Below, one piece after another: positions 4,945-57,379 of a stretch of DNA of 64,000 nucleotides (its first letter is position 1; each line of letters starts with the position of its first letter). The notes beneath the pieces were generated by a model. The model searched no databases. It worked only from the letters and a program-made list of their open reading frames with translations, and was not told the DNA's origin. The stretch lies in assembly GCA_965113315.1 (NCBI GenBank), contig OZ220370.1; one strand, 5' to 3'. This DNA is from Podarcis vaucheri (taxonomy: Eukaryota). The position numbers and the translations under genes are program-made.

Positions 4945-5806
4945 ATTCATCATGCGAAAGGCTGGGCTGGATGAATCCCAAGCCGGAATTAAGATTGCCG
5001 GAAGAAATATCAACAACCTCAGATATGCAGATGACACAACCTTGATGGCAGAAAGTGAAGAGGAATTAAAGAACCTTTTAATGAGGGTGAAAGAGGAGAG
5101 CGCAAAATATGGTCTGAAGCTCAACATCAAAAAAACGAAGATCATGGCCACTGGGCCCATCACCTCCTGGCAAATAGATGGGGAAGAAATGGAGGCAGTG
5201 AGAGATTTTACTTTCTTGGGCTCCATGATCAGTGCAGATGGTGACAGCAGTCACGAAATTAAAAGACGCCTGCTCCTTGGGAGAAAGGCGATGTCAAACC
5301 TAGACAACATCTTAAAAAGCAGAGACATCACCTTGCCAACAAAGGTCCGTATAGTAAAAGCCATGGTTTTCCCAGTAGTGATGTATGGAAGTGAGAGCTG
5401 GACCATAAAGAAGGCTGATCGCCGAAGAATTGATGCTTTTGAATTATGGTGCTGGAGGAGACTCTTGAGAGTCCCATGGACTGCAAGAAGATCAAACCTC
5501 TCCATTCTGAAGGAAATCAGCCCTGAGTGCTCACTGGAAGGACAGATCGTGAAGCTGAGGCTCCAATACTTTGGCCACCTCATGAGAAGAGAGGACTCCC
5601 TGGAAAAGACCCTGATGTTGGGAAAGATGGAGGGCACAAGGAGAAGGGGACGACAGAGAATGAGATGGTTGGATGGTGTTCTTGAAGCTACTAGCATGAG
5701 TTTGATCAAACTGCGGAAGGCAGCGGAGGACAGAAGTGCCTGGCGTGCTCTGGTCCATGGGGTCACGAAGAGTCGGACACGACTAAACGACTAAACAACA
5801 ACAACA
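4945..5806 (+). mobile_element. BovB (RTE-clade) LINE, 5'-truncated, uninterrupted 280-aa RT C-terminal ORF (4952-5794)
   Basis: RYADD RT motif and AFELWCWRRLLRVPWTARRSN...KSRTRL typical of BovB; (CAA)n tail; possible TATTT TSD. Confidence 0.97.
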
Positions 5807-10511: not shown

Positions 10512-10949
10512 TATCACATCCACACCCAGTCTGGCATGTTTGGAAATACGATACAGATTTACTGAAATGAATTTTATTTCACACCGAATATAGGTTTGCT
10601 GAGACAGCAGTCTTGATTAAGCCAACATATATTGAAATAGAGGGTTGATGTGTTGGAAGGCCTCAAAACTCATTTCCCATGGTTTTAGCAGTGAGTGTAG
10701 TACAAGGCACCACTAGGGCTAGACAGATCATCTGAGAGTCACCTAGAAAGTACTCTGACAGGATTCCTACCAGCCGAAGATCAGGACAGTTGGGTACACT
10801 TGCCCCGGATCTTGGAGGACTAAGCTGGCTGACCCCCCCCCCCAGGGACCAGCTGCTTTTCTTTGAGTTCATAACTTTATTCTAACTCCCACCGTGGGGC
10901 CCAGACAAACTCTCCAGGAGCCTGCTACAAGCAATAGTGAAAATGGGAA

Positions 10950-11297
10950 AGTTAAGGGACCCCTGACCATTAGGTCCAGTCGTGACCGACTCTGGGGTTG
11001 CGGTGCTCATCTCGCTTTATTGGCTGAGGGAGCCGGCGTACAGCTTCCGGGTCATGTGGCCAGCATGAGTAAGCCGCTTCTGGCAAACCAGAGCAGCGCA
11101 CGGAAACACTGTTTACCTTCCCGCCGGAGTGGTGCCTATTTATCTACTTGCACTTTGAGGGGCTTTCGAACTGCTAGGTTGGCAGGAGCAGGGACCGAAC
11201 AACGGGAGCTCACCCTGTCACGGGGATTCGAACCGCCGACCTTCTGATTGGCAAGTCCTAGGCTCTGTGGTTTAACCCACAGCGCCACCCACGTCCC
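10950..11297 (-). mobile_element. Sauria SINE, full length
   Basis: tRNA head with B-box GGTTCGAATCC, BovB-like tail; 13-bp TSD GTGAAAATGGGAA (10937-10949 / 11301-11313). Confidence 0.95.
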
Positions 11298-13480: not shown

Positions 13481-13806
13481 CAGGGGTCAGCAAACTTTTT
13501 CAACAGGGGGCTGGTCCACTGTCCCTCAGACCTTGTGGTGGACCAGACTATATTTTTTTTTGGGGGGGGGATGAATGAATTCTGATGCCCCACAAATAAC
13601 CCAAAGATACATTTTAAATAAAAGCACACATTCTACTCATCTAAAAACACCAGGCAAGCCCCACAAATAACCCAGAGATGCATTTTAAATAAAAGGACAC
13701 ATTCTACTCGTGTAAAAACACGCTGATTCCCGGACCATCCGCGGGGCCGGATTTAGAAGGCGATTGGGCCGGATCCAGCCCCCAGGCTTTAGGTTGCCTA
13801 CCCATG
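13481..13806. mobile_element. hAT (Charlie-like) MITE
   Basis: CAGGGGTCAGCAAACT ... GGTTGCCTACCCATG; perfect 8-bp TSD GCCTAGTG (13473-13480 / 13807-13814); internal ~70-bp tandem duplication. Confidence 0.92.
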
Positions 13807-16937: not shown

Positions 16938-17009
<72 letters not shown>

Positions 17010-17010
17010 C
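16938..17010. repeat. Compound microsatellite (TAA)n(CAA)n
   Basis: Directly visible; explains the poly-Leu ORF 16881..17069. Confidence 0.97.
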
Positions 17011-23129: not shown

Positions 23130-24144
23130 GATGGTCTCCCTCTTGAAAGTGGATTTTTGTCACAGTCCCCATTCTTCCCTTTTCTTCTATCCTTCTAAAA
23201 GAAAGCAATTTCCTCTGGGAACAAATCACAAAGGTGCCAAAACTCTGGAGGGTCTCTGCACTCTCTCTGGGTGCAAGATTGGCAAAACTTTTCTTTTTAA
23301 GAATATCTCTGGGCTTTCTTCTTCTCCTCCAGCCCTCCTTTCCTTTCCTACATTTGAGGGGGGGGGGTTGGAGGAATTAAATCAAAGCTATGCACGTAGG
23401 AAGGGAGGGGAGTCAGGAAAGACACCGGCAGCTTTAGAAGTTCTTTTCGGGTGGGGGGCGGGAGAGAGGGAGCGCAAGGGGGAAGGGCTTCCCTTTTTTC
23501 CCCCTTCTCTCCTCGGCTGCTGAACTTGACCCCCGCTGACTCCACCACCAACAGGGCTACTGCAAGTTTTCAAGTCGCCCATTTCCCAAGCATCAACACA
23601 TGGTTTTGACCCACAAAAGCCAGGCCAAGCAGAGAGGGAGGGAGGTTTTATTTTTTTAAAAAAATGCAAAAAATATTTTTATATTAAAAAAAAACCTCCA
23701 TGCACTTCTACTTCTTCTTTTGCACTATTTTACAACACCCCTTCTTTACAACACCACCAAACTCGCCCCCCTCTTTCCAACGCACCCTGGATTCGGAGCT
23801 CTGATTTCTCATTGCGCACGCAGACATAACGCACACGCGATATACCATTTGGAGAATATCCTTTTTTATATATATATAAATAAATAAATTAAGAAAAACC
23901 AGAGTCACATACGCAGTGATCGCCAGAAGCAGGAAAGGATTTGCGCGCAACCGGCCCCCCACTCCCCTCCCCTCGTCTTCCTCCTCCCCCCCACCTCCGA
24001 TCTCCACCTCTCCTGCCCTCCCCAACAAACCACACACACACACAAAACACAGCCCCTGATGTTGTTCTTTTCCAAACCAGCCCCCCACCTCCCCACAGGC
24101 CCGGTTCTTTAACATCTCCCACCGCCGCCGCCACCACCACTTAC

Positions 24145-24776
24145 CTGTTGATTAATCAGCAGTAATAATAATAATAATAACCGGAGCAGCTTGAAAGATG
24201 GTGGAACTGTCGCTTGAGCCATGAACCGTCTTTCTGTTGTTTGCAACAGAGTTGATCTTGGATTATTTTGGAAGAGGTGGAAAGCGGGGATGGGGGGGGT
24301 AAGAGAGAGAGAGAGAAAGAGAGAGAGAAGGAAGGAGGAGGGGGGAAGAGAAAGGAGGAGGAAGACAGAGAGAGAGAGGGAGAAGCGGGGGTTAAAAGCA
24401 GGAAGAAAAAGAAGGGGAGGGAGAAAGAGAGAGGGGAAAATAAAGATTTGCTTTTACAACCCCCCCCCTTCTCGCCCCCTCTGCTGATGGGGAGAGAGAG
24501 AGAGAAAGGGGGAAGCGCAAAGGAGGACCTGAATCTGTCTGGTTATGTTTATGAAAAAGGAAAGAGAGAGGGAGAGAGAGAGCCTGGCTTCTAGTGGCAC
24601 AAACAAGCCCCAAAAAAGGAGGAGGAGGAGGAGAGGCGAGGAGGCTTTTGGAGATTGCAAGGAGATCAGCTCTTTATCAGAAATGTTATCGCTTGTCAGG
24701 ACCTCAGTCTCCGAGCATTACGTCAGTTTCAAGACACCAACACTATTAATATCAAAGGGAGCCTTAGCGAGAGAAA
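24145..24776 (-). other. TRPS1: TRPS1 exon 1 (non-coding 5' leader exon)
   Basis: Minus strand reads ...GCTAAGGCTCCCTTTGATATTAATAGTGTTGGTGTCTTGAAACTGACGTAATGCTCGGAGACTGAGGTCCTGACAAGCGATAACATTTCTGATAAAG... then CT-rich tracts, then AATAATCCAAGATCAACTCTG...GACGGTTCATGGCT...CCACCATCTTTC...GATTAATCAACAG|GTAAGT. Both blocks match the human TRPS1 mRNA 5' UTR as I recall it. Canonical donor GT at 24144-24143. The TSS position is approximate. Confidence 0.85.
24290..24640. repeat. Polypurine (GA/GGA) low-complexity tract inside exon 1
   Basis: (GA)n, GGA and G runs on the + strand; pyrimidine-rich in the mRNA sense. Confidence 0.9.
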
Positions 24777-25050
24777 AGCGCCACCCCAGACGGAGAGCCC
24801 TTAAAGAGACAGTGCAGGCGTCCCCTCTCGCCGCTGCCGGCCTTAGCCCGGCCTCCTCCTCCTCCTCCGGCGGCTCCTCCTCCTCCGTCTCCTCTCGCTC
24901 GCGCAATTCGCAGCAGCGGCGGCGGCAGCGGCAGCCCCACGAGGCGAAGGCGGCCGGGGAAGAATCACATCATTCACACGTCTTTGCCCCTGACGGCCGG
25001 GGCGGGGAGAGGAGAGGGAAGCGGGGTGGGGGAGTGGGTTTCACTTTTGC
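24777..25050 (-). promoter_or_regulatory. TRPS1: TRPS1 core promoter / CpG island
   Basis: Highest CpG/GC density in the window, with GGC/GGA/GCT repeats. TATA-like CTTTAA (minus strand, 24806-24801) lies ~25-30 nt upstream of the inferred TSS. Confidence 0.7.
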
Positions 25051-28000
25051 AAAAGGAGGGAGACTTTATCCTCGTCCCCCCCCCCAAAAAAAAAACCCTC
25101 CTCATTTTTTAAAAGGAAAGAAAAAGAAATGCCCCGCACAGGAAGTTTTCAGAGAAGCTTTTGCACCCAGTCAGCCCACTGGCTGCCTCAATGCTGGCAG
25201 AGGCTCTACGGTTGTTTAAAATTGGGGGGGGGGTGTTGTTCCCTACCTGGAGATGCCAGGAATTGAACTTGCAGTGCGAAAGAGCTGCCCCTGGTTTTGC
25301 ATGGGGATGGGGTGGGGGCTTGTCTAGGGCTGGTGCAAGTTTGGGAGCTCACCTTTCCACAGGAGGGATCAGATCCTCAGCTGCCTGCCTTGGGAAAGAT
25401 GGATTTGGAAAAGTCACAGCATGAAAAAGAGCCTGCATGCAATTTTATGGTTGGAAGTCCCTTGCTCTGTGGGGGAAAGAGAGAGACTTAGGAAAACATC
25501 TAACAGCCCAAATCGAGAGTTGGTTAGTGGTGCAAGTAACTTTCATTTGCTTGTTTTTCATATTAGGTCATTTCTTTTTCATGCAACCCTAAGCAAGACG
25601 CCGCATGAACAGCAGTGCCGAGCCCCTGAAGGGTTTTATCATATAGGTGGTGTACAGTTATATACAGTATGCTCTCGTATGGAAACTTCTAATTAACAAA
25701 AGTCAGATTCCCTATACTGTAAATTACCAACCGTCTATGACATTTTTTTAAAAAAAATCCTCTAAGGAAAATTTCTTGGTGAAACAATTTTCAATGTAAA
25801 ACAAGGAGGTGCCTAAAGAAGGCAAACATTTGTGGGACACTTGTAGAACCCTTCCCCCCCCATAGATTACTTGCTGTGGTGTTCTTCCCCTTTGTAATAC
25901 ATTTTAAATTGGCTTCAGACTTCAAGCAGTCGCAATCTAGTTTATTCTCGCTCCTAGTAAGAGATTATCCAGCCAGGAAGCATGAAAAAGCTAATTATTA
26001 GCTAGACATAAAGTTATTTCGCACAAAATACGTTTCACTTCATATACAATGTTTCCCTGAAAAGTGTCCTTTTGGTGGTGGGGAGGGGGCGCACAATGCA
26101 ACTAAAATATTTCAATTTAGCAAACAAAGCAAAAATTAATTTGAAATAAACCAAGGCCTGTTTTGCTAGATTAATCGTTTGCTTATCTTTCGTATAATAT
26201 ACTGGAAGATGTGTAAACTAACTCATTAATTCATATTCCTCCACCACCCACCCCACAAGCTTACTTAGGTTCTTTTGTAGGTTTTGTCTGATAAGCACTT
26301 CATGAATACGAATGCAATAATTCACAGGCAAGAGGTGAACTTGTGAGGTAAGTAAAATGTAGTTGCTTTATCTGACATATACCATGTTACTTTAAAGAGG
26401 GAGAGGAGAATCATTACACGATGTGGAGGACTGATTATATACTCCATCACCAGAAATTCAGTTGGGAAAGCTAAGAAAGGTAATACTCATATCTGTGGTG
26501 GAATTTAAAGTTACCAAGGACTATTTGCATTTTTAATGGTGGAATAATTTACTGTAGTACATTGCTAATATCTACTATAAGCACTCTTTGGGGAAGCAAG
26601 GTCTGCACGTTTTATTTTATTAAGCTCTAAATCCGATTGCTGAAGAAATTTTAGACAGAGACAATGTCTGGAATAATTTACGCAAACAAGGACTGGCGTT
26701 CATTTTTCCATCAATAAGGTTTTAGACGACTCTAGAATACTTAGTTTAAACTAAACAAAGTCTTGTCTCTAGGTAACTTGCGACCCAACATGCAAGTAAG
26801 TTAATCTGGTAGCATCATGTTAGGTTCAGGAATATGAATCAGGTGAAGCAGTAGGTCCCTTGGGTTAACTGGGTCATGGGTTCGACTGCGAGGGAGCAAA
26901 CTGAATATGCCTGAACAAGCTTGTCAGCTGGCACTGTGAATGGAAAGTATAAAACAAAAAATAGAGGTGATTGCTTCTTACATGCCCCTGGCACTGATAG
27001 AATCAGGCTTTACAAAAATGAATTCTGTTCCCTTTCATGTGGACTTCAGTATCATCACAAGGTGATTTTGAAAAAGAAATTCTAACAAAGGTTCAAACAG
27101 CTCAGTCTGTAACTTTGTCCCCAATTTCCCCAGATGTGAATTCACTTAAAACTATTGTGTAAAATTACTGATAACTAACGCATCTTACCATAAGCACAAA
27201 CTTTTTGAAATGATGCACGTATCCTTTCCAACATATCACTCGGACAATAACTCCTAAGGATTTACATGGCCAGGTTAAAAAATGAAATGCTAGAATGATC
27301 CCCACCCAACACACACATCTCTACTTCATAAATAGTAAGGCCAAGCTGTATTATTTTCCAATAGGAAAATCCTGGAAAAACTGTATTAGCAAAGCACCTC
27401 TAAAATAGTCTGTCTGACATCTACAGCATTTTCCCTTAAAATAAACCAAATATCAAAAACAGGCTAATTAATAAGCAGCTAAAGTTAACTGGGAAAAGAG
27501 CCACAAAGAACTTGATAAAAGCAAAAACAAAACAAAGATGCAGCAAAGTGTTTTGGGTTATCTTTTTCCACAAGCAAAGTTATTTATTTATGAAAAAATT
27601 TACGGAGAAAATTTCTACCTCATGCTCAAGGCTTTAGCACATGCTTCTGATTGGCACAATATGTGGATACACAAAGGGCCTCATGAGGTCCATTTAGTTA
27701 GCCTAAAATAAATATTTCCAACTCATTCTTGAGCTCAAATAATTGCTTGATTGTAACTTCTAATATGCATGGGTCAGTTATTCTATTGTTTCTTTCAAGT
27801 ACTTGTCCATCTGTTTTTGAGACCCTAAACATCTAAATTATATAAATTACATAAAGCGAGATACTGAAGGGTCTTTTTTATTCTGCTGTCCAGTACTGTC
27901 AAGCACATCTATTTTGTTTGTTTGCTTTAATTAACAGACTATTTGTTTTCTTTGAAACCAGGTTACCCACAAAGTGAGACACTTTTTGCGGCAGGAATTG

Positions 28001-29218: not shown

Positions 29219-29797
29219 CATAGAATCATAGAGTTGGAAGAGACCACAAGGGCCATCGAGTCCAACCCCCTGCCAAGCAGGAAACACCATCAGAGAACTC
29301 CTAACATATGGTTGTCAAGCCTCTGCTTAAAGACCTCCAAAGAAGGAGACTCCACCACACTCCTTGGCAGCAAATTCCACTGTCGAACAGCTCTTACTGT
29401 CAGGAAGTTCTTCCTAATGTTTAGGTGGAATCTTCTTTCTTGTAGTTTGGATCCATTGCTCCGTGTCCGCTTCTCTGGAGCAGCAGAAAACAACCTTTCT
29501 CCCTCCTCTATATGACATCCTTTTATATATTTGAACATGGCTATCATATCACCCCTTAACCTCCTCTTCTCCAGGCTAAACATGCCCAGCTCCCTCAGCC
29601 GTTCCTCATAAGGCATCGTTTCCAGGCCTTTGACCATTTTGGTTGCCCTCCTCTGGACACGTTCCAGTTTGTCAGTGTCCTTCTTGAACTGTGGTGCCCA
29701 GAACTGGACACAGTACTCCAGGTGAGGTCTGACCAGAGCAGAATATAGTGGCACTATTACTTCCCTTGATCTAGATGCTATACTCCTATTGATGCAG
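29219..29797 (-). mobile_element. CR1 LINE 3' fragment with intact ORF2 C-terminus (29290-29754)
   Basis: [19 protein letters not shown]...[12 protein letters not shown] is the canonical CR1 ORF2; (TCATAGAA) tail. Confidence 0.97.
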
Positions 29798-31374
29798 CTT
29801 TAATCTTCCAACATTCAGAGTTTCTGATGACTCTAGTTTCTAGTATTACGACCAAGGTAGAAAAAGTTCCCTATCTACTTTGTTGTTCTTGTGAGCTCGC
29901 CAGAGGCATCCGACTCTCCTCTGTTAGAAATGGGTTGCAGGGCAAGATGAATCTTTGGTCTGATCTGTTCTTCCATTCTGATAAGACGATGGCAACAACA
30001 CAGAGGGATGCATTTCATATGTGAATTAGCCAACAGGCAGAACTTTCTGATCTGCCAGGCATCAAGTGCTTAGTAATCAAATAATAAACAAAGGTATGGG
30101 TGCATATATATTTTTAGTCAGGCCGAAGGAAAATTACATTAAATATTAGGATGAACTGTTCTGATAATGTAAGCGGCAGCAGAAACGGCTGACTGGCTAT
30201 GGAATAAATTTGTCAGTTTAAATTCTAAGCCAGAACACTTTTAGTAGAGAATATTTTTATTACTAATAATAACTATTGTTATTATTTGGACATTAATTTA
30301 GTAGCTGAGGATACTGTGCAGTTGTTTGAGCAGTTATTAAACAAAGTGACATATAGGATTAATACTGTGAATTGTCAAGATCCTGAGGATTCTGCATCTT
30401 AAATTGCATAGGCAGAGGCAGACTGTATTTCAACTCTGGACTGGGCCATGAAACTCACTGGATGGCCTTGGGCCAGTCACTGTCTCTCAGCCTAACCAAC
30501 CTCCTGAAGGCAAAATTAGTTCACTCTTTGCAGATATGCCACCTTCGACTCTTTTGCAGCTATGTAATAAATGTGTATGCAGTGCAATCTTGTGCATGTC
30601 TATTCAGAACAAGTCCTCCCTAAACTCCATGTGGATTTCTCCCAGATGCCTGTGTGTAGAAAAGCAATCTTAATTAATTAAAGGAATAAATTGCACTTTT
30701 CTTTCCTCCGGAACCATCAGTAGACTTTTGGCTTCTGTTCTGCACATTAGGTGGCAAACCTCTCTCAATTATTGATTCATTTATATGGATCTATAGCACA
30801 CAGACCATGCAATTCCAGGTCAGGTTATATGCAGTTTAATATAGCAAATATTGTTTGTCTAATGCAAACAAACCAGGACTTCTCAACATCTGGTTTTGAA
30901 CTACAACTCCTGTTCACCCTAACCAGTGTAGTCGTTGGTCAGGGATGATGGGAGCTATATCTTCTCAGCTTAGAGAAGACTGCACTAAAACACAAAACAA
31001 AATGTGTAAAACAGCAAAAGCAAATCGGCAATGATACTGCAGAATTAGTGCTGGTGGATAATTCTGATCTTGTCCCAACTCCCTAAAAGAAGGCCTGCGC
31101 AAAAAAAGGATTGTCTTGAATCACCACCAATACATGCACAATTATGGGGCCAGGCACACCTTGAAGGGGAGGGCTTTCCACTGCAAAGGAGGTCCTCTCA
31201 TGAACCATCACCCCATGAACTTCACAGCATGGCAGATCTAACAGCAGTGCCTCTCCTGCAGGCAAGTCTATATGGGAAAGTCAATTGCTATATTGTACTA
31301 TTCACTGAGCCAGTACAAAGGCAAAATGTACTGGTAAATAACTAATTTTATTGAAGGATCACTTTGTGAGGGGG

Positions 31375-35330: not shown

Positions 35331-36390
35331 TACTGAGCTATGGCCCTTCACAAAATGCTTGCTTCCACACACACAGTCATACACAGAATATGGCACTCTC
35401 TGTTCATTTGTAAGGAATAATAAATGCCAACTCTTGTTTCTCTACTTCTAGTTACTGCTGCAAATTAATATTTCTGCCTCTGTTATAAACCAACATGAAA
35501 ATATATTTCCTTTCTACCTGAAAGAACACTCTCTGCTACTTCTTTTACTAGAGCTGTTTTTGAATAGATGGTTTCGACACTGTGGTCTTTCAGTGATATC
35601 CACAAAACCATTAAGGCTAATTTGTAGCATTCAGGCTTAAGCTAGCTGTGACCCCACTGGTTTAATTACAAGTACACCCACTAAATAGGTTGTGAGTCAC
35701 AGGCTGAAATGTAAGAGTTCAGAGGTATGCATCTGTTAAAGAAGAAAAAAAACCACCCTTGTTTGCCAGCCAAGACTCAGGCTGATCTATGAAGTCAGCC
35801 ATTCAAATGTGCTAACTAGCCTTTCCAACATGGCAATGATAGTAACCCCAATATTCTTGAAGGCATCAAAATAGATAACTGCTGCACAGGTAATTTAGCA
35901 ATAATCATGGTATAGTCACTATCGTGCATCTTAAGTATACCACATGGATTATATCTCAGGGATTTTTATGACATCCCTGGAAGATAGGACAGTGTTATTG
36001 TTGTTGTTATTATTATTATTATTAAGCATCACTGCTACTTCTGAGGTGGAGTGTAGTTTTAATAAACTTTTATGAAACCTTTTAGAAACTTCAGTTTCTG
36101 TTGTCTACCTGATGTGGCATATAGCTTTATATTGCACTTTACCTTTTGGTATTATTTGCCACCTAGGAACTTTTAGAGATGAAAGTGTGGGATATAAATT
36201 TAGCACATAAATAATACATTGGCCTCAGATTATACTCTGAGGTGTGCTAGGCTCACTCCGGTTCATCCTCAACCACCATGACCCTATATTGGCTTCCCCA
36301 AGTCCCACAGGATGCTCATGATAGCCCAGGCTGGATTCCCCAGGCCATATTTGCAATCCTGGGTGATTTCTTTCTGTCTTTCATAATCTA

Positions 36391-36742
36391 AAAAGGTAAA
36401 GGGACCCCTGACCATTAGGTCCAGTCGTGACCGACTCTGGGGTTGCAGTGCTCATCTTGCTTTATTGGCCAAGGGAGCCGGCATACAGCTTCCAGGTCAT
36501 GTGGCCAGCATGACTAAGCCACTTCTGGCGAACCAGAGCAGCACACAGAAACACCGTTTACCTTCCCGCCGGAGCGGTATCTATTTATCTACTTGCACTG
36601 TGACGAGCTTTCGAACTGCTAGGTTGGCAGGAGCAGGGACCGAGCAACGGGAGATCACCCCGTTGCGGGGATTCGAACCGCCGGCCTTCTGATCAGCAAG
36701 TCCTAGGCTCTGCGGTTTAACCCACAGCGCCACCCGTGTCCC
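36391..36742 (-). mobile_element. Sauria SINE, full length
   Basis: Same family as 10950; 12-bp TSD TTTCATAATCTA (36379-36390 / 36744-36755). Confidence 0.95.
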
Positions 36743-37085: not shown

Positions 37086-37438
37086 TTGTTGTTTAGTTGT
37101 TTAGTCGTGTCCGACTCTTCGTGACCCCATGGACCAGAGCATGCCAGGCACTCCTGTCTTCCACTGCCTCCCGCAGTTTGGTCAAACTCATGCTGGTAGC
37201 TTCGAGAACACTCTGCAACCATCTCGTCCTCGGTCGTCCCCTTCTCCTTGCGCCCTCCATCTTTCCCAACATCAGGGTCTTTTCCAGGGAGTCTTCTCTT
37301 CTCATGAGGTGGCCAAAGTATTGCAGCCTCAGCTTCAGGATCTGTCCTTCCAGTGAGCACTCAGGGCTGATTTCCTTAAGAATAGATACATTTGATCTTC
37401 TTGCAGTACATGGAACTCTCAAGAGTCTCCTCCAGCAC
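37086..37438 (-). mobile_element. BovB LINE 3' fragment
   Basis: ORF 37093..37422 matches the C-terminus of 4952..5794. Confidence 0.95.
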
Positions 37439-38594
37439 CTTTATACCTTTCCAAATGCACAAGTAGTGGCATTTAATATTGTGGTGAGAGAGTTTGTAAT
37501 ACCTCCTTGTAGCTACTTCCCACACTTCCAGCTGTCCACCTAATGTCAAGACACACCAACATGAGCAAGTATTCATCCATTCCCTTGACTTCATGTTACC
37601 TTTAACCCCTTCTCAGCCAGCAGGGATGGAGAAATAAATGCAGGAGGTCTCCCACTGCGAGGCAACCATCTAACAGTATTGGGATTGCACCATAGTGGTG
37701 CTGTTTGCAAAGAATCCAGCTATCCAAATACCACACAGTCATCAGCCAAGAGAGAATGGGGTGAGGAGTATTTGCACCAGACTGTCACTTAATTTCATTT
37801 CTTGCAAATACATTTTTTGGTGAAAGGCCGCTTGCCGTCCTGAGCTCTCTTCCTGCACTCTGCAAGTGCAACGAAGCAAAGTGGCAGCCTCCAAGCTGTC
37901 TGCTTTCACTGTAGCCAAGATTTATTTACATAGCTTGTGGTGTGAGGTCTGAGTTTAAGTTCAGGGGGAAAAGGAAACATCTTTCAAATACATGTGTTTC
38001 ACCTTGCTTTAAAAATGCACCCTCCATTGTAACAATAATGTCTTCTGTCAACATGCATTATCTGACATACAATACATAGTCACTACCGTTAAAAGCTAGA
38101 TGTGTACGCCATGCCTTACTTAAATTCACCGCGATCGTTCCACTCTTGCCAATTTGGAGAACAAGGAATAATGAAAGTAGAAACATCACAAAGCAAACAC
38201 ATCTGCAATAAAGGCCCATTCAAAAAGAAAATGTCAACAGTAAGTGCAGCCCCTAGAGGTTTTCTTTTCATAAACGTTCCCTACACTATGCAAGTGTTTT
38301 AAACCATAGAAGACCTGCAGCAGGTAGATCATACAAATGCATTTCCATAAAAGTAGACTTAGGACTAGCACTTGTCAAATTACAGCTGGGTTTCAAGCCC
38401 CTACGGTAACATAGGCAAGGGAGTTTGAACCACTCCCAGGACGTGTGGTGGTTGGGACACAAATTATAGGTGTTACACGATCGTCACCATGAGATGAAGC
38501 TCCTGTCAGGCAATGCTGATTCACACTGTGAGTCATCACAGTTAATATAAAGCTTTGTACAGCTCAGGGCCCTGATATCTATCAGAGATCCTCT

Positions 38595-38810: not shown

Positions 38811-39704
38811 TAAGGAATTTGCTATGTTTTTTGCCACTAAAGTTTTTGCTGATGCTTCATTGGGTCTGTTTTATATCTCATGTGGCTACCAAACAGTGCA
38901 TCAGCCAATGACATACATCTCCCCGGGATCTGCAGGATGAGCAAACGTAGCACAGTTTTACATGGTATGTTCATCTGCACAACCCATGCTGCTTTACGTT
39001 TAACCAAGTCAAGGAATGTTCAGCCTAGAGTGTCCTACCATATACCAGAACACTGAAGTGTTAAATGGTTTACTTCACAAAGACGCAAGATGATCCTAGC
39101 ACCCTGGGAGAAGAATTGGATTATTCTGACCATCTGCCTCCCACATTATCAGACTGAGACTTTAAACAGACAATGCCTGAAGAAGAAGAAAAGTTGCTTA
39201 GCTAACACCAATATTATTTGTCACTGCTGTCAACACTGAATTGAGTATCTTAAGCTAGTTTGAATTAAAAGATATTGCAGGCACTAAAATTAAAGTGCTA
39301 GACCTTACACAATAGGTCCACGTGGGACTTAAAATATATTAACAATACTGTGAGATTGCATATTAAGAGTAAGCTCTCACTGCTTACCCACCTGGACAAT
39401 ACATTTACAATTACTATTTCTTTTAAGCATTTACATATCACCCTCCATAAATATTTTTTCCCAGAAGTATGTTACAATGCAGATTAGAAAGAAAGCAATT
39501 TAATTTTAAAAAACCAGTAACATATAAAACAAGTAAATAATTGTCAGAGCAGCTGAGTGAAAAACACAGTTTATGTCCATTTCCTCCAACAACTTATTCA
39601 AATGCCTGTGAATGTCATAACCTCTTACTACAAATGTATTCAGGTACATACCATAAGAACATAAGATTCTGCTGTATCAAGCAACAGGCCCATCTCCCGT
39701 TCTC

Positions 39705-40565
39705 ACAGTGTCCAACTCTATGGCGCAACCCCATTTAGAATACTGCACACAGTTCTTGTTGCTTCACCTCATAAAGACTATTGTACAGCTGGAAAAGGTT
39801 CAGAAAAGAGCAATCAAAATGATCAAAGGGATGGAGCAACTCCCCTGTGAGGAAATGTTGCAGCATTTGGAGCTTTTCAGTTTAGTGAAAAGGCAAATAA
39901 GAGGAGACATGATAGAAGATTATAAAACTATATGTGGTGTGGGGAAAGCGGTTAGGAGAATCTTTTCTCCCTCTCTCTCCTAACACTAGAACTCGTAAGC
40001 ATCCAATGAAACTATATGTTGAAGGAATCAGGACAGACAAAAGGTGGCACTTCCTCACGCAGTGCGCAGCTAAACTATGAAACTTGGATAGCTTTAAAAG
40101 AGGACTGGGCAAATTCATGGATGATACGGCTATTGATGGCTACTAGCCATCCATGATTGGAGGCAGTACACTTCTGAATTACCAGCTGCTGCAAATTGCA
40201 GGAGAGGCAAGTGCACTTGGGTAGAGTGTTCTTGGGTAGAGTTTGGATTTGATATCCCGCTTTATCACTACCCGAGGGAGTCTCAAAGTGGCTAACATTC
40301 TCCTTTCCCTTCCTGCCCCACAACAAACACTCTGTGAGGTGAGTGGGGCTGAGAGACTTCAGAGAAGTGTGACTGGCCCAAGGTCACCCAGCAGCTGCAT
40401 GTGGAGGAGCGGAGTCGCAAACCCGGTTCACCAGATTACGAGTCTATTGCTCTTAACCACTACACCACACTGGCTCTTGTACTGCTTGTGGGCTCCCCAA
40501 AGACATCTGGCTGGCCACTGTGAGAACAGAATGCTGGACTAGTTGGGCTACTAGCATGGCTCTTC
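39705..40565 (+). mobile_element. Older CR1 LINE 3' region, interrupted by a SINE
   Basis: ORF 39708..39983 PHLEYCTQF...LEKVQKRAIKMIKGMEQL...RGDMIE; the CR1 3' UTR continues after 40474. Confidence 0.85.
40238..40476 (-). mobile_element. tRNA-head SINE with L2-type tail (Squam2-like)
   Basis: Minus strand AGAGCCAGTGTGGTGTAGTGGTTAAGAGC...GTGACCTTGGGCCAGTCAC...AAAGCGGGATATCAAATCCAAAC. Older relatives at ~30425-30570, 36760-36928, 44770-44990. Confidence 0.85.
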
Positions 40566-50459: not shown

Positions 50460-50836
50460 AAAAAGGTAAAGGACCCCTGGATGGTTACGTCTAGTCAAAG
50501 GCGACTAATGGGGTTGTGGTGCTCATCTTGCTTTCAAGCTGAGGAAGCCGGCATTTGTCCACAGACAGCTTTCCAGGTCATGTGGCCAACAGGACTAAAT
50601 GCTTCTGGTGCAACGGAACACCGAGATGGAAACCAAAGTGCACGAAAATGGCGTTTACCTTCCTGCTGCAGTGGTACCTATTTATCTGTTTGCACTGGTG
50701 TGCTTTCAAACTGCTAGGTTGGCAGGAGCTGGGACAGAGCAACAGGAGGAGCTCACCCCATCACGGGGATTCAAACCGCCGACCTTCTGATCGACAAGCC
50801 CAAGAGGCTCAGTGGTTTAGACCACAGCGCTACCCT
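50460..50836 (-). mobile_element. Sauria SINE (second subfamily) nested in a hAT MITE (~50275-50975)
   Basis: AAAGGTAAAGGACCCCTGG...TTTGTCCACAGACAGCTTTCC subfamily insert; CTGGAGT flanking repeat. Confidence 0.9.
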
Positions 50837-51727
50837 ACTGGAGTGTAGCCCCATCACTGTTGCCTCTGTCCCCTGTCACTTTTCCTTCTGGCCCTACCCA
50901 GCACTGGCAAGCAGGACCGAGAAGATTCCCCGTGAGGAAATGCAGTCCTTAGGCTGAAAAAAACGTTTTCAGTCCACATTGCTAGTGAAAAAGCTCTGAT
51001 TTCCCATATATCCTTTGAGCGTGAGTGAAGAGACGGAGAAGTATCTGATTTAAAGATATAAAGTAACTTCTCCCCTCCCTTTCTCTCTTTCTCTCTTTCC
51101 TCCCGAAGCAGCGCAAATGCTTTGAAAGATTCTATTCTCGGAAAGGAACTGAAATAATTTTAAACGGACCAATTTACATATTTCTGAAATAACATGCTTC
51201 CCTTCATAACAGATCCTTAGCTGTCAGGGTTGTTTCAAATTGAGGCAAAAATTATACTGTAGATTAAATTCTCACAGCTGATACATTTGTAACAATAATA
51301 CTTAACCGTCTTTAACTCTCAAATAAAAAATTGCAGCAGATTGAGGCAAGGCAGAAAGAATGCATAATACTGGGATCACATTAACAACACCTTCCGAAGG
51401 AAACATTAGAACTCGCACAGACAAAACACTAATTAGTATGAAACGGTGCAAAGGTATAAAGAGACAGCGTTGAGCATTAGAAGGTCTTTTCTCTGCCTAA
51501 CCTTGCTTCATTGTTAACTCTTTGATCCTACATTCCTAATCTGTGTAACTAATTAATCTGAATAGGTAGCCAAGTATGTATGTGGGTACTTTTGAGCAAT
51601 ATTGATAAATACAGACGGAACATCTTTCCAACTGTAATGACTTGTTCGCCACATCTTCCAGAAGTAATAATATATCTTCCCTCTAAATCCGTTTCACCTG
51701 GCGTCAGCAGAACATAAAAACATAGTA

Positions 51728-52337
51728 ATCATCATCATCATCATCATCATTTATTATTTGTACCTCGCCTATCTGGCTGGGCTTCCCCAGCCACTCTGGG
51801 CGGCTTCCACAGAGACCAAAAATACACTAAAATGTCACACATTAAAAACTTACCTGAACAGGGCTGCCTTCAGATGTCTTCTGAATGTCAGGTAGTTGTT
51901 TATCGCTTTGACATCTGATGGGAGGGCGTTCCACAGGGCGGGTGCCACTACCAAGAAGGCCCTCTGCCTGGTCCCCTGTAGCTTTGCTTCTTGCAGTGAG
52001 AGAACCACCAGAAGGCCCTCAGCGCTGGACCTCAGCGTCCGGGCAGAACGATGGGGGTGGAGACGCTCCTTCTGGTATACAGGGCTGAGGCCGTTTAGGG
52101 CTTTAAAGGTCAGCAGCAACACTTTGAATTGTGCTCGGAAACGTACTGGGAGCCAATGTAGGTCTTTCAAGACCGGTGTTATGTGGTCTCGGTGGCGGCC
52201 CCCAGTCACCAGTCTAGCTGCCGCATTCTGGATTAGTTGTAGTTTCCGGGTCACCTTCAAAGGTAGCCCCACGTAGAGCGCATTGCAGTAGTCCAAGCGG
52301 GAGATAACTAGAGCATGCACCACTCTGGCGAGACAGT
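51728..52337 (-). mobile_element. L2 LINE 3' fragment (young)
   Basis: ORF 51850..52371 VHALVISRLDYCNALYVGLP...LHWLPVRFRAQFK...RAFLVVAPALWNALP; (ATG)n tail. Confidence 0.95.
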
Positions 52338-52975
52338 AAGAGGAGCCTGCTGGATCAGGCGAATGGCCCATCTAGTCCAGCGTCCTGTTCACACAGTGGC
52401 CAACTTGATGCCCGTGGTAAACCCTCAAGTGAGCACAAGAGCAACTCTTCCCTCCTGTGGTTTCCAACAACTGGTATTCAGAAGCACTGCTGCTTCTGAT
52501 TATGGGAGCAGAACACAGCCAGCCTTATTGTCTATACATCTGTTCAGTCCTCTTTTAAAGCTGTCCAAGTTGGTGGCCATCACTGACTCCTGCAGGAGCA
52601 GTTTCCATAGTTTCAATATGCACTGGTTGAAGAAGGAATTTATTTTATCTGTCCTGAATCTTCCAACATTCAGATTCATTGGATGTTCATGAGTTCCAGT
52701 GTTGTGAGAGAGGGAGGAAACCTTTCCTCTATCCACTTCCTTCATGCCGTGCATAATTTTATTAACTTCTTCATGTCACCTGTAGCTTGCCATTTTTCTA
52801 AAGAGAAAAAAAAGTCCCCAATGCTGCATTTTTTCCTCACAGGGAATGGCTCCACCACCTTAATTTTTCCAGTTGCCCTTTTCAATGGCCTTTCTGAAGT
52901 GAGGCAACCAGAACGGTACAGAGTATTCCAAATGCAATTATACCATACATCTGTATAATGGCATTATGATACCGG
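52338..52975 (-). mobile_element. Older CR1 LINE 3' region
   Basis: ORF 52500..52754 HPMNLNVGRFRTDK...FKRGLNR; 3' UTR GAGCCTGCTGGATCAGG. Confidence 0.85.
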
Positions 52976-53785: not shown

Positions 53786-54413
53786 AAGGGGAAGAAATGG
53801 AGGCAGTGAGAGATTTTGCTTTCTTGGGCTCCATGATCACTGCAGATGGTGACAGCAGCCACGAAATTAAAAGACGCCTGCTTCTTGGGAGAAAAGCAAT
53901 GACAAACCTAGACAGCATCTTAAAAAGCAGAGACATCACCTTGCCGTCAAAGGTTCGTATAGTTAAAGCTACGGTTTTCCCAGAAGTTATGTATGGAAGT
54001 GAGAGCTGGACCATAAAGAAGGCTGATCACTGAAGAACTGATGCTTTTGAATTATGGTGCTGGAGGAGACTCTTGAGAGTCCCATGGACTGCAAGAAGAT
54101 CAAACCTATCCATTCTGAAGGAAATCAGCCCTGAGTGCTCACTGGAAGGACAGATCATGAAGCTGAGGCTCCAATACTTCGGCCACCTCATGAGAAGAGA
54201 AGACTCCCTGGAAAAGACCCTGATGTTGGGAAAGATGGAGGGCACAAGGAGAAGGGGACGGCAGAGGATGAGATGGTTGGATAGTGTTCTCGAAGCTACC
54301 AGCATGAGTTTGACCAAACTGCGGGAGGCAGTGGAAGACAGGAGTGCCTGGCGTGCTCTGGTCCAGGGGGTCACGAAGAGTCGGACATGACTAAACGACT
54401 AAACAACAGCAAC
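53786..54413 (+). mobile_element. BovB LINE 3' fragment
   Basis: ORFs 53797..54033 and 54073..54390, split by a CGA->TGA stop; 12-bp TSD AAATATATAAAT (53774-53785 / 54414-54425). Confidence 0.97.
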
Positions 54414-56241: not shown

Positions 56242-57379
56242 TGCTCTCCCTCTCACAGCTTGGTTCGTTCCAAGTCACCATTTCTCAGACCCAGTTACCT
56301 ATTTGTAAAATGTAAGAAATAGTAACTTCAAATATGGTGGCTGTAAGGTGTGTGTGTGTGCATGCGTGCGCGTATGTGCAAACTTTAGAGGGGCCCTATA
56401 TACTGTATAATAAAAAAGTTCTAGTCTGAACTGTTGTTGCATCCAAACCAGCCACAGCAGGTAAGGCTGAATGGAAACTGCCATTTATTGCAATTCTTGT
56501 GAAGATTCTCTTACCGAATGAGAATTTTAGGATGTAGCCCAACAATAACAACACTATTTAACCTTGAGGGGGGAAATGTTGACACGGTATTTATGCGTTA
56601 TTTATTGCAGCAACAAATAAATCATAGAACATAAGGTGTCAGTCTCCAGAGATCCTTCATTCAGGTGTTACAAGTCTTTCCTTTTATTTAAAGGAAACAG
56701 GAAAAGAAAACATGTTGGGCAGGATATGTAGAACAGATATGAATGAAGTTTTGGAAGACAGTTGAGCATCCATCAGAAAGGGAGAATGATTTATGTATTC
56801 AAAAAAGCAAGGGGAGGGAAAGACAAGGAAGAATGAAAATAGAAGCCAAGCCAGCTGTTGTTGTTGTTATTTTATTGTTATTGTTAGCCTTGTGGTTCAC
56901 AGCAGTACCTTGAACCTGGCCCAGCAGTAAATTATCAACTAGGAGCAGAGTTGCATACTGTGTATAATCTGCTCCTTTGAGTCATCTGGCTGCTGGATTC
57001 TACACTAGTTGAAGCTTCTGGGGTTATCAGTGCATGGACCACTGTAGCCTGGCTCCTGTGGTCCAGGAATGGTCACAGTAACTCAAAACAGCCTCTTTCC
57101 AATGTCCATACCTATTTTTTTGTGCAGAAGTCTGTATTTGCCTCAAGTTTACTTAATCCTGACTATGTGAATACTGACACACACACCCCGTATATAATCT
57201 TCGAATCTGAAGTGCAAAATTAAATATAACACTGAGCAGAGAAAGAAGTTTCATAGATATGTCTCGGTAAACATTTCATCAAGACAGAAAACTCATTCTA
57301 AATGTCTGAGCAGAAGAGTTTATCATCTAGAAGGTAAGGGGGGAAATACCAATGTATGTGCACAGATTTCCTCCTCTTA

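Follow-up and report, generated by a model that had tools for sequence, protein, structure and literature searches.

A 64 kb window of Podarcis vaucheri DNA (the whole stretch analysed, 64,000 nucleotides) carries on its minus strand the exon 1 half of an upstream open reading frame (uORF) of TRPS1. The human counterpart is already catalogued, and comparison with it supports a start, frame and phase-0 donor that human and reptile have in common. The sequence comparisons suggest that the TRPS1 uORF most likely acts in cis and is a conserved element of an ordinary kind in a gene sensitive to dosage, and that a run of leucines in the reptile copy is probably a neutral repeat expansion, a lineage-specific microsatellite.

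The upstream reading frame and its splice donor

The uORF starts at an ATG at 24222 on the minus strand and runs for 26 codons without a stop to a donor that it enters in phase 0. These coordinates and the translation, as given in the initial annotation, were exact when re-checked in the 64 kb window. The features are as follows.

24145 to 24222, minus strand: exon 1 part of the uORF, 26 codons (78 nt), open across the donor (by translation; aligned to codons 1-22 of human c8riboseqorf92)
24220 to 24222, minus strand: upstream ATG (uATG) in a moderate context, U at -3 and G at +4 (by sequence context)
24139 to 24144, minus strand: predicted intron 1 donor, GTAAGT, which the uORF meets in phase 0 (by motif; position relative to the peptide as at the human exon end)
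24109 to 24111, minus strand: stop codon used only if intron 1 is retained, giving a product of 37 residues (by translation)

The sequence around the uATG is GGTTC-ATG-G. The G at +4 had been pointed out before, and to this we add that the base at -3 is a pyrimidine, which makes the context moderate and leak-prone. The donor, CAG/GTAAGT at 24145/24144, is one of six perfect AG/GTAAGT sites in the 64 kb window. There are four minus-strand ATGs between 24145 and 25100 and only the one at 24222 is open as far as the donor; the remaining two frames of the 78 nt both meet stops 5' of the donor. A structural stall element at the uORF was considered and rejected, because the RNA between 24145 and 24260 folds no better than shuffled sequence (z = -0.03; 95 of 200 shuffles fold equally well).

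Three other elements lie close to or within the uORF. Another frame within the uORF (24152-24199, minus strand) is opened by an AUC codon whose context is CCACC (A at -3); it runs for 15 codons and is closed just 5' of the donor, and since it shares nucleotides with the PPSF codons, PPSF could be retained for nucleotide reasons. A CTG with A at -3 (24249, minus strand) lies in frame nine codons 5' of the uATG and might extend the uORF as a near-cognate start. An imperfect GGT/GGC repeat adjoins the donor at 24119-24140, and read-through into the intron would give a glycine run.

Relationship to the human uORF

The GENCODE Ribo-seq ORF c8riboseqorf92 is a spliced uORF of 43 residues in human TRPS1 (ENSG00000104447; Sandmann et al., 2023, PMC10032668, supplementary file 2, row 6524). 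It lies on the minus strand of chromosome 8 at 115668545-115668610 and 115623693-115623758 (hg38), with 66 nt in each exon, and its biotype is uORF, the stop being reached in the next exon after 43 residues (PMC10032668). The same row lists it as 'conserved' in non-primate mammals, at the level of amino-acid similarity, with 0 MS studies (as of 2023) and PhyloCSF scores of -30.42 in primates and -259.49 in mammals (PMC10032668). Termination in exon 2, which had been proposed for this uORF, is therefore borne out for human by the published row. An N-terminal extension of TRPS1 from the uATG is ruled out for human by the uORF biotype. The ribosome-profiling evidence for the uORF is this catalogue listing and consists of human data.

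Within the exon 1 part, 14 of the 22 human residues are identical in the window when aligned by eye (Met, Ala2, Ala4, PPSF, Leu12, Arg14, one Leu and INQQ). The other eight are changed, among them L to Q, G to K and P to L. A rough binomial estimate for 13 of 21 identities at p=0.08 is 6e-10. The window is longer by four codons (78 nt against 66 nt in human), a net insertion of 12 nt, although the repeat that it contains measures 18 nt. Both species thus have the start close to where exon 1 ends, cross the first donor in phase 0 and carry PPSF and INQQ. The difference is that human has VFLT where the window has (TTA)6 and eight leucines, and that translation and the exon 2 half are known from human alone. 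The human peptide given in the initial annotation matches residues 1-22 of the published row, and the common start, PPSF, INQQ and length difference of a multiple of three that it had described are all present. The alignment is fixed at both ends, by start and donor, and the predicted orthology with the exon 1 half of c8riboseqorf92 is consequently secure. Homology to the human row likewise supports the assignment of the gene in the window as TRPS1. The match with human supports gene identity and a retained start, frame and donor, and not selection on the peptide.

The leader and the rest of the window

Two CpG-rich stretches surround the uORF.

24501 to 25250, no strand: CpG- and GC-rich sequence, probably the promoter with the beginning of exon 1 (CpG observed/expected 0.69-0.76)
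23501 to 24250, no strand: CpG-rich stretch spanning the end of exon 1 and the start of intron 1 (CpG observed/expected 0.78-0.83)

CpG richness around the uORF is as expected for what appears to be a first exon. The 438 nt immediately 5' of the uATG (24223-24660) are pyrimidine-rich on the minus strand, contain 12 short runs with units of one to three nucleotides and have no ATG where composition predicts 2.59, which is a weak depletion. Further 5', the ATGs at 24718, 24970 and 24973 (minus strand) open frames of 4, 1 and 2 codons and would be within the transcript only if its start is far enough upstream. A 103-codon open frame 5' of the uATG is low-complexity CT-rich sequence.

Six-frame motif scans of the window, with some of the motifs taken from the human row, found no TRPS1 coding exon and no exon 2 half of the uORF. 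This fits the length of the human intron (44,786 nt), as the window has 24,144 nt downstream of the donor.

The rest of the window contains repeats. Related LINE fragments, presumably of BovB/RTE type, are found at 4946-5794, 37093-37440 and 54034-54390; in the first of these an open frame of 282 codons matches the Pfam reverse-transcriptase domain RVT_1 at 4946-5791. The frames at 29290-29799, 39657-39983 and 51850-52371 we take to resemble the ends of CR1- and L2-type LINEs, and a Pfam search of two of these three gave no match. One dispersed repeat has copies at 10867-11247, 36387-36692 and 50543-50848 that are alike in translation, and presumably resembles the Sauria SINE. Predicted intron 1 contains a compound (TAA)11(AAC)14 microsatellite at 16938-17010 and a 71-bp tandem duplication at 13587-13721.

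Proposed action of the uORF on TRPS1

We think it probable that the uORF is an ordinary cis-acting brake that diverts scanning ribosomes from the TRPS1 start, and that the leucine run is likely neutral. If the reptile transcript is spliced as in human, the uORF would have approximately 47 residues and would end 5' of the main start. A fraction of the 40S subunits would initiate at the uATG with its moderate context and the rest would leak past; reinitiation would be poor after a uORF so long, and TRPS1 output would be lowered. Start, frame and underlying leader sequence would be retained rather than the peptide, so that an in-frame expansion of TTA would be tolerated. If exon 2 were skipped, the uORF would presumably overlap the main TRPS1 start, as the initial annotation assumed. 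The released hydrophobic peptide would mostly be degraded, and the hydrophobic tails of non-canonical products have been associated with proteasomal removal (PMC12863090).

Leaky scanning and poor reinitiation are established behaviour of uORFs (PMC11057154). In a CRISPR screen of 978 uORFs most effects were ascribed to action in cis, TRPS1 being absent from the main text of that report (bioRxiv 10.1101/2025.07.07.663426). In TRPS1, a haploinsufficient gene, exons 2-7 hold the coding region (PMC5415804), and uORF carriage is given as 46.2% for loss-intolerant genes against 27.8% (PMC11057154). Control of TRPS1 dosage by the uORF is plausible on these grounds. However, translation of uORF and CDS often rise together in Ribo-seq studies (cited in PMC11057154); this conflicts with simple repression and counts against a brake. 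Literature searches, mostly of papers outside subscription, found no main-text functional study or reporter test of the TRPS1 uORF (in PMC11998461 TRPS1 is named only in the reference list) and no published mention of a reptile copy with a TTA insert.

Conservation of the frame

The initial annotation held that the uORF is under frame constraint. The part of this that stands is that start, frame and phase are kept between human and lizard; as an argument for constraint it is weak, as it comes from two species and a single indel in a triplet repeat. A single net indel is divisible by three by chance in one case out of three, and one in a triplet repeat always is. Of the 13 short repeat runs in 24145-24660, just one is inside the uORF and it is a triplet (1/1), compared with 3 of 12 upstream, which is a weak hint. 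Published figures suggest that a kept frame with a negative PhyloCSF score, as at the TRPS1 uORF, is a common uORF pattern: 1,335 of 2,915 uORFs have an ORBLq above 0.9, and 74 of 2,915 have a PhyloCSF above 10 (PMC13275300). One of the frame-constrained, peptide-unconstrained uORFs in that catalogue, c8riboseqorf102, resembles the present one in its conserved start and frame and negative PhyloCSF; for c8riboseqorf102 there is HLA-peptide evidence (PMC13275300).

These data also bear on the possibility that the uORF is a passenger, the end of exon 1 being conserved for splicing, transcription or RNA binding and its leaky translation having little effect on TRPS1. The strongly negative PhyloCSF scores and the 0 MS studies of the human row (PMC10032668) are consistent with this, as are the moderate context of the uATG and the ease with which a length difference divisible by three arises, and the conserved INQQ sits on the exonic bases of the donor. 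It does not account so readily for a start, frame and phase that human and a squamate have in common, nor for the closure of both alternative frames of the 78 nt; the depletion of ATGs in the 438 nt upstream is a weak point in the same direction, and the uAUG is reported to be the most conserved triplet of leaders (PMC11057154). We regard a passenger uORF as unlikely beside the cis-acting brake.

The leucine run

The leucines of the reptile uORF are encoded mainly by a microsatellite.

24163 to 24180, minus strand: (TTA)6 microsatellite encoding six leucines, lacking from the human peptide (perfect 6 copies by TRF)
24154 to 24180, minus strand: hydrophobic run of nine residues (eight Leu and one Ile), codons 15-23, mean Kyte-Doolittle 3.88 (by translation)

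Codons 15-20 are TTA and are followed by two CTG codons and ATT; the initial annotation was therefore right in reading the run as a (TTA)6 microsatellite. In hydrophobicity the run ranks second among the 646 ATG-led frames of 26 codons in the window, 14 of which score at least 3.0. The other three top-scoring frames (56833, 35944 and 35968) are likewise on microsatellites, and on the plus strand the microsatellites at 35944-36024 and 56833-56886 have ATG-led poly-Leu/Val frames that are by chance as hydrophobic as that of the uORF. The TTA repeat on the minus strand is read as Leu, Tyr or Ile depending on the frame, with no stop in any of the three, and its hydrophobicity therefore comes with the repeat itself. 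Perfect AAT-class tracts of at least four units occur five times in the 64 kb window, and squamate genomes are rich in microsatellites (PMC11581779, PMC6050309).

It had been proposed that the basic-then-hydrophobic N-terminus could recruit SRP. K11 and R14 do form a basic n-region ahead of hydrophobic residues 15-23, as in the n- and h-regions of a signal peptide. In the human uORF peptide, however, R14 and NQQ are separated by no more than five residues, all uncharged, and the hydrophobic core is thus not conserved. The chain, at 37 residues unspliced and a predicted 47 or so spliced (judged from the human exon 2 half), is shorter than those on which SRP is efficient. The ribosome exit tunnel holds 30-40 residues, so that at termination a 47-mer would expose only residues 1-7 to 1-17, the core being residues 15-23. 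Preproteins of up to 100 residues depend on post-translational transport by Sec62 (PMC3395660), a route that acts after release and so gives no feedback on the mRNA. SRP can nevertheless engage while the signal has yet to emerge, and its binding is raised by a hydrophobic segment in the tunnel (PMC8998515). Cleavable SRP-type ER signal peptides and short Sec62-dependent preproteins (PMC3395660, PMC8998515) have, like the uORF peptide, basic residues followed by a nine-residue hydrophobic run. They differ from the uORF peptide, which has a predicted length of some 47 residues and lacks a known cargo domain and, in its exon 1 part, which ends INQQ, a small-residue cleavage motif. Since human has no core, the hydrophobicity is borne by the repeat and the chain is too short, recruitment of SRP is not supported. 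The reading as a poly-Leu signal peptide is unlikely from these comparisons, and the leucine run is probably without a targeting role. The further suggestion that microsatellite length tunes SRP recruitment finds no support either, because the repeat is hydrophobic in all three frames and the chain is below the size at which SRP is efficient.

A broader form of this idea is that the TTA run alters repression, either through SRP recruited from the exit tunnel or because six slow UUA codons queue ribosomes. UUA is a rare, slow leucine codon in vertebrates, and this counts in its favour together with the rank of the run, the basic residues that precede it and, weakly, the triplet unit of the sole repeat within the uORF. 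SRP binding with the segment still in the tunnel is also possible (PMC8998515). Set against this are the human peptide with no hydrophobic core, a stop-free repeat that would be read as Leu, Tyr or Ile in whichever frame it fell, the equally hydrophobic microsatellites elsewhere in the window, the position of the core in the tunnel at termination and the Sec62 route of short preproteins, which has no action on the mRNA (PMC3395660). A brake tuned by its repeat is accordingly improbable. We attach very little probability to the stronger proposal that the slippage-prone reptile (TTA)n, placed in a TRPS1 uORF as old as the amniotes, is a tuning knob in which repeat number sets ribosome dwell time and hence TRPS1 dose. 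If it were true, a UTR microsatellite would be a source of heritable skeletal variation by way of TRPS1, which is haploinsufficient and regulates cartilage and skin appendages.

The uORF peptide

Conservation at the peptide level is not supported, given the published PhyloCSF scores and the lack of MS studies for the human uORF. When a 43-residue stretch in frame with the uORF was searched against proteins, no relative appeared among 676 longer candidates, 10 of near length or 1.84 billion representatives, and a Pfam search with the same stretch gave no family, each being a weak negative for a short eukaryotic peptide. A gapped DNA pattern built from both ends of the uORF had 12 matches in metagenomes, all 12 of them unrelated chance matches, and 0 in viral contigs. 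It is highly doubtful that the spliced peptide has a conserved function of its own: the listing as 'conserved' by amino-acid similarity in mammals other than primates (PMC10032668) and the retention of PPSF and INQQ in the reptile speak for it, but against it are a PhyloCSF of -259.49 over 43 codons with 0 MS studies (PMC10032668), a hydrophobic insert together with the eight changed residues, and the negative searches, in databases that cover short eukaryotic uORF products poorly.

Significance

The reptile facts will not surprise a specialist, as constraint at the level of the frame is found in nearly half of catalogued uORFs (PMC13275300). The reptile copy places the start, frame and donor phase of the TRPS1 uORF further back than the mammals, and its tolerated poly-Leu insertion is a natural argument against the importance of the uORF peptide sequence. 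If the cis-acting brake is real, variants that destroy or extend the uORF would be candidate causes of tricho-rhino-phalangeal cases that are so far unexplained, and the uATG would be a possible handle by which TRPS1 may be raised in haploinsufficiency.
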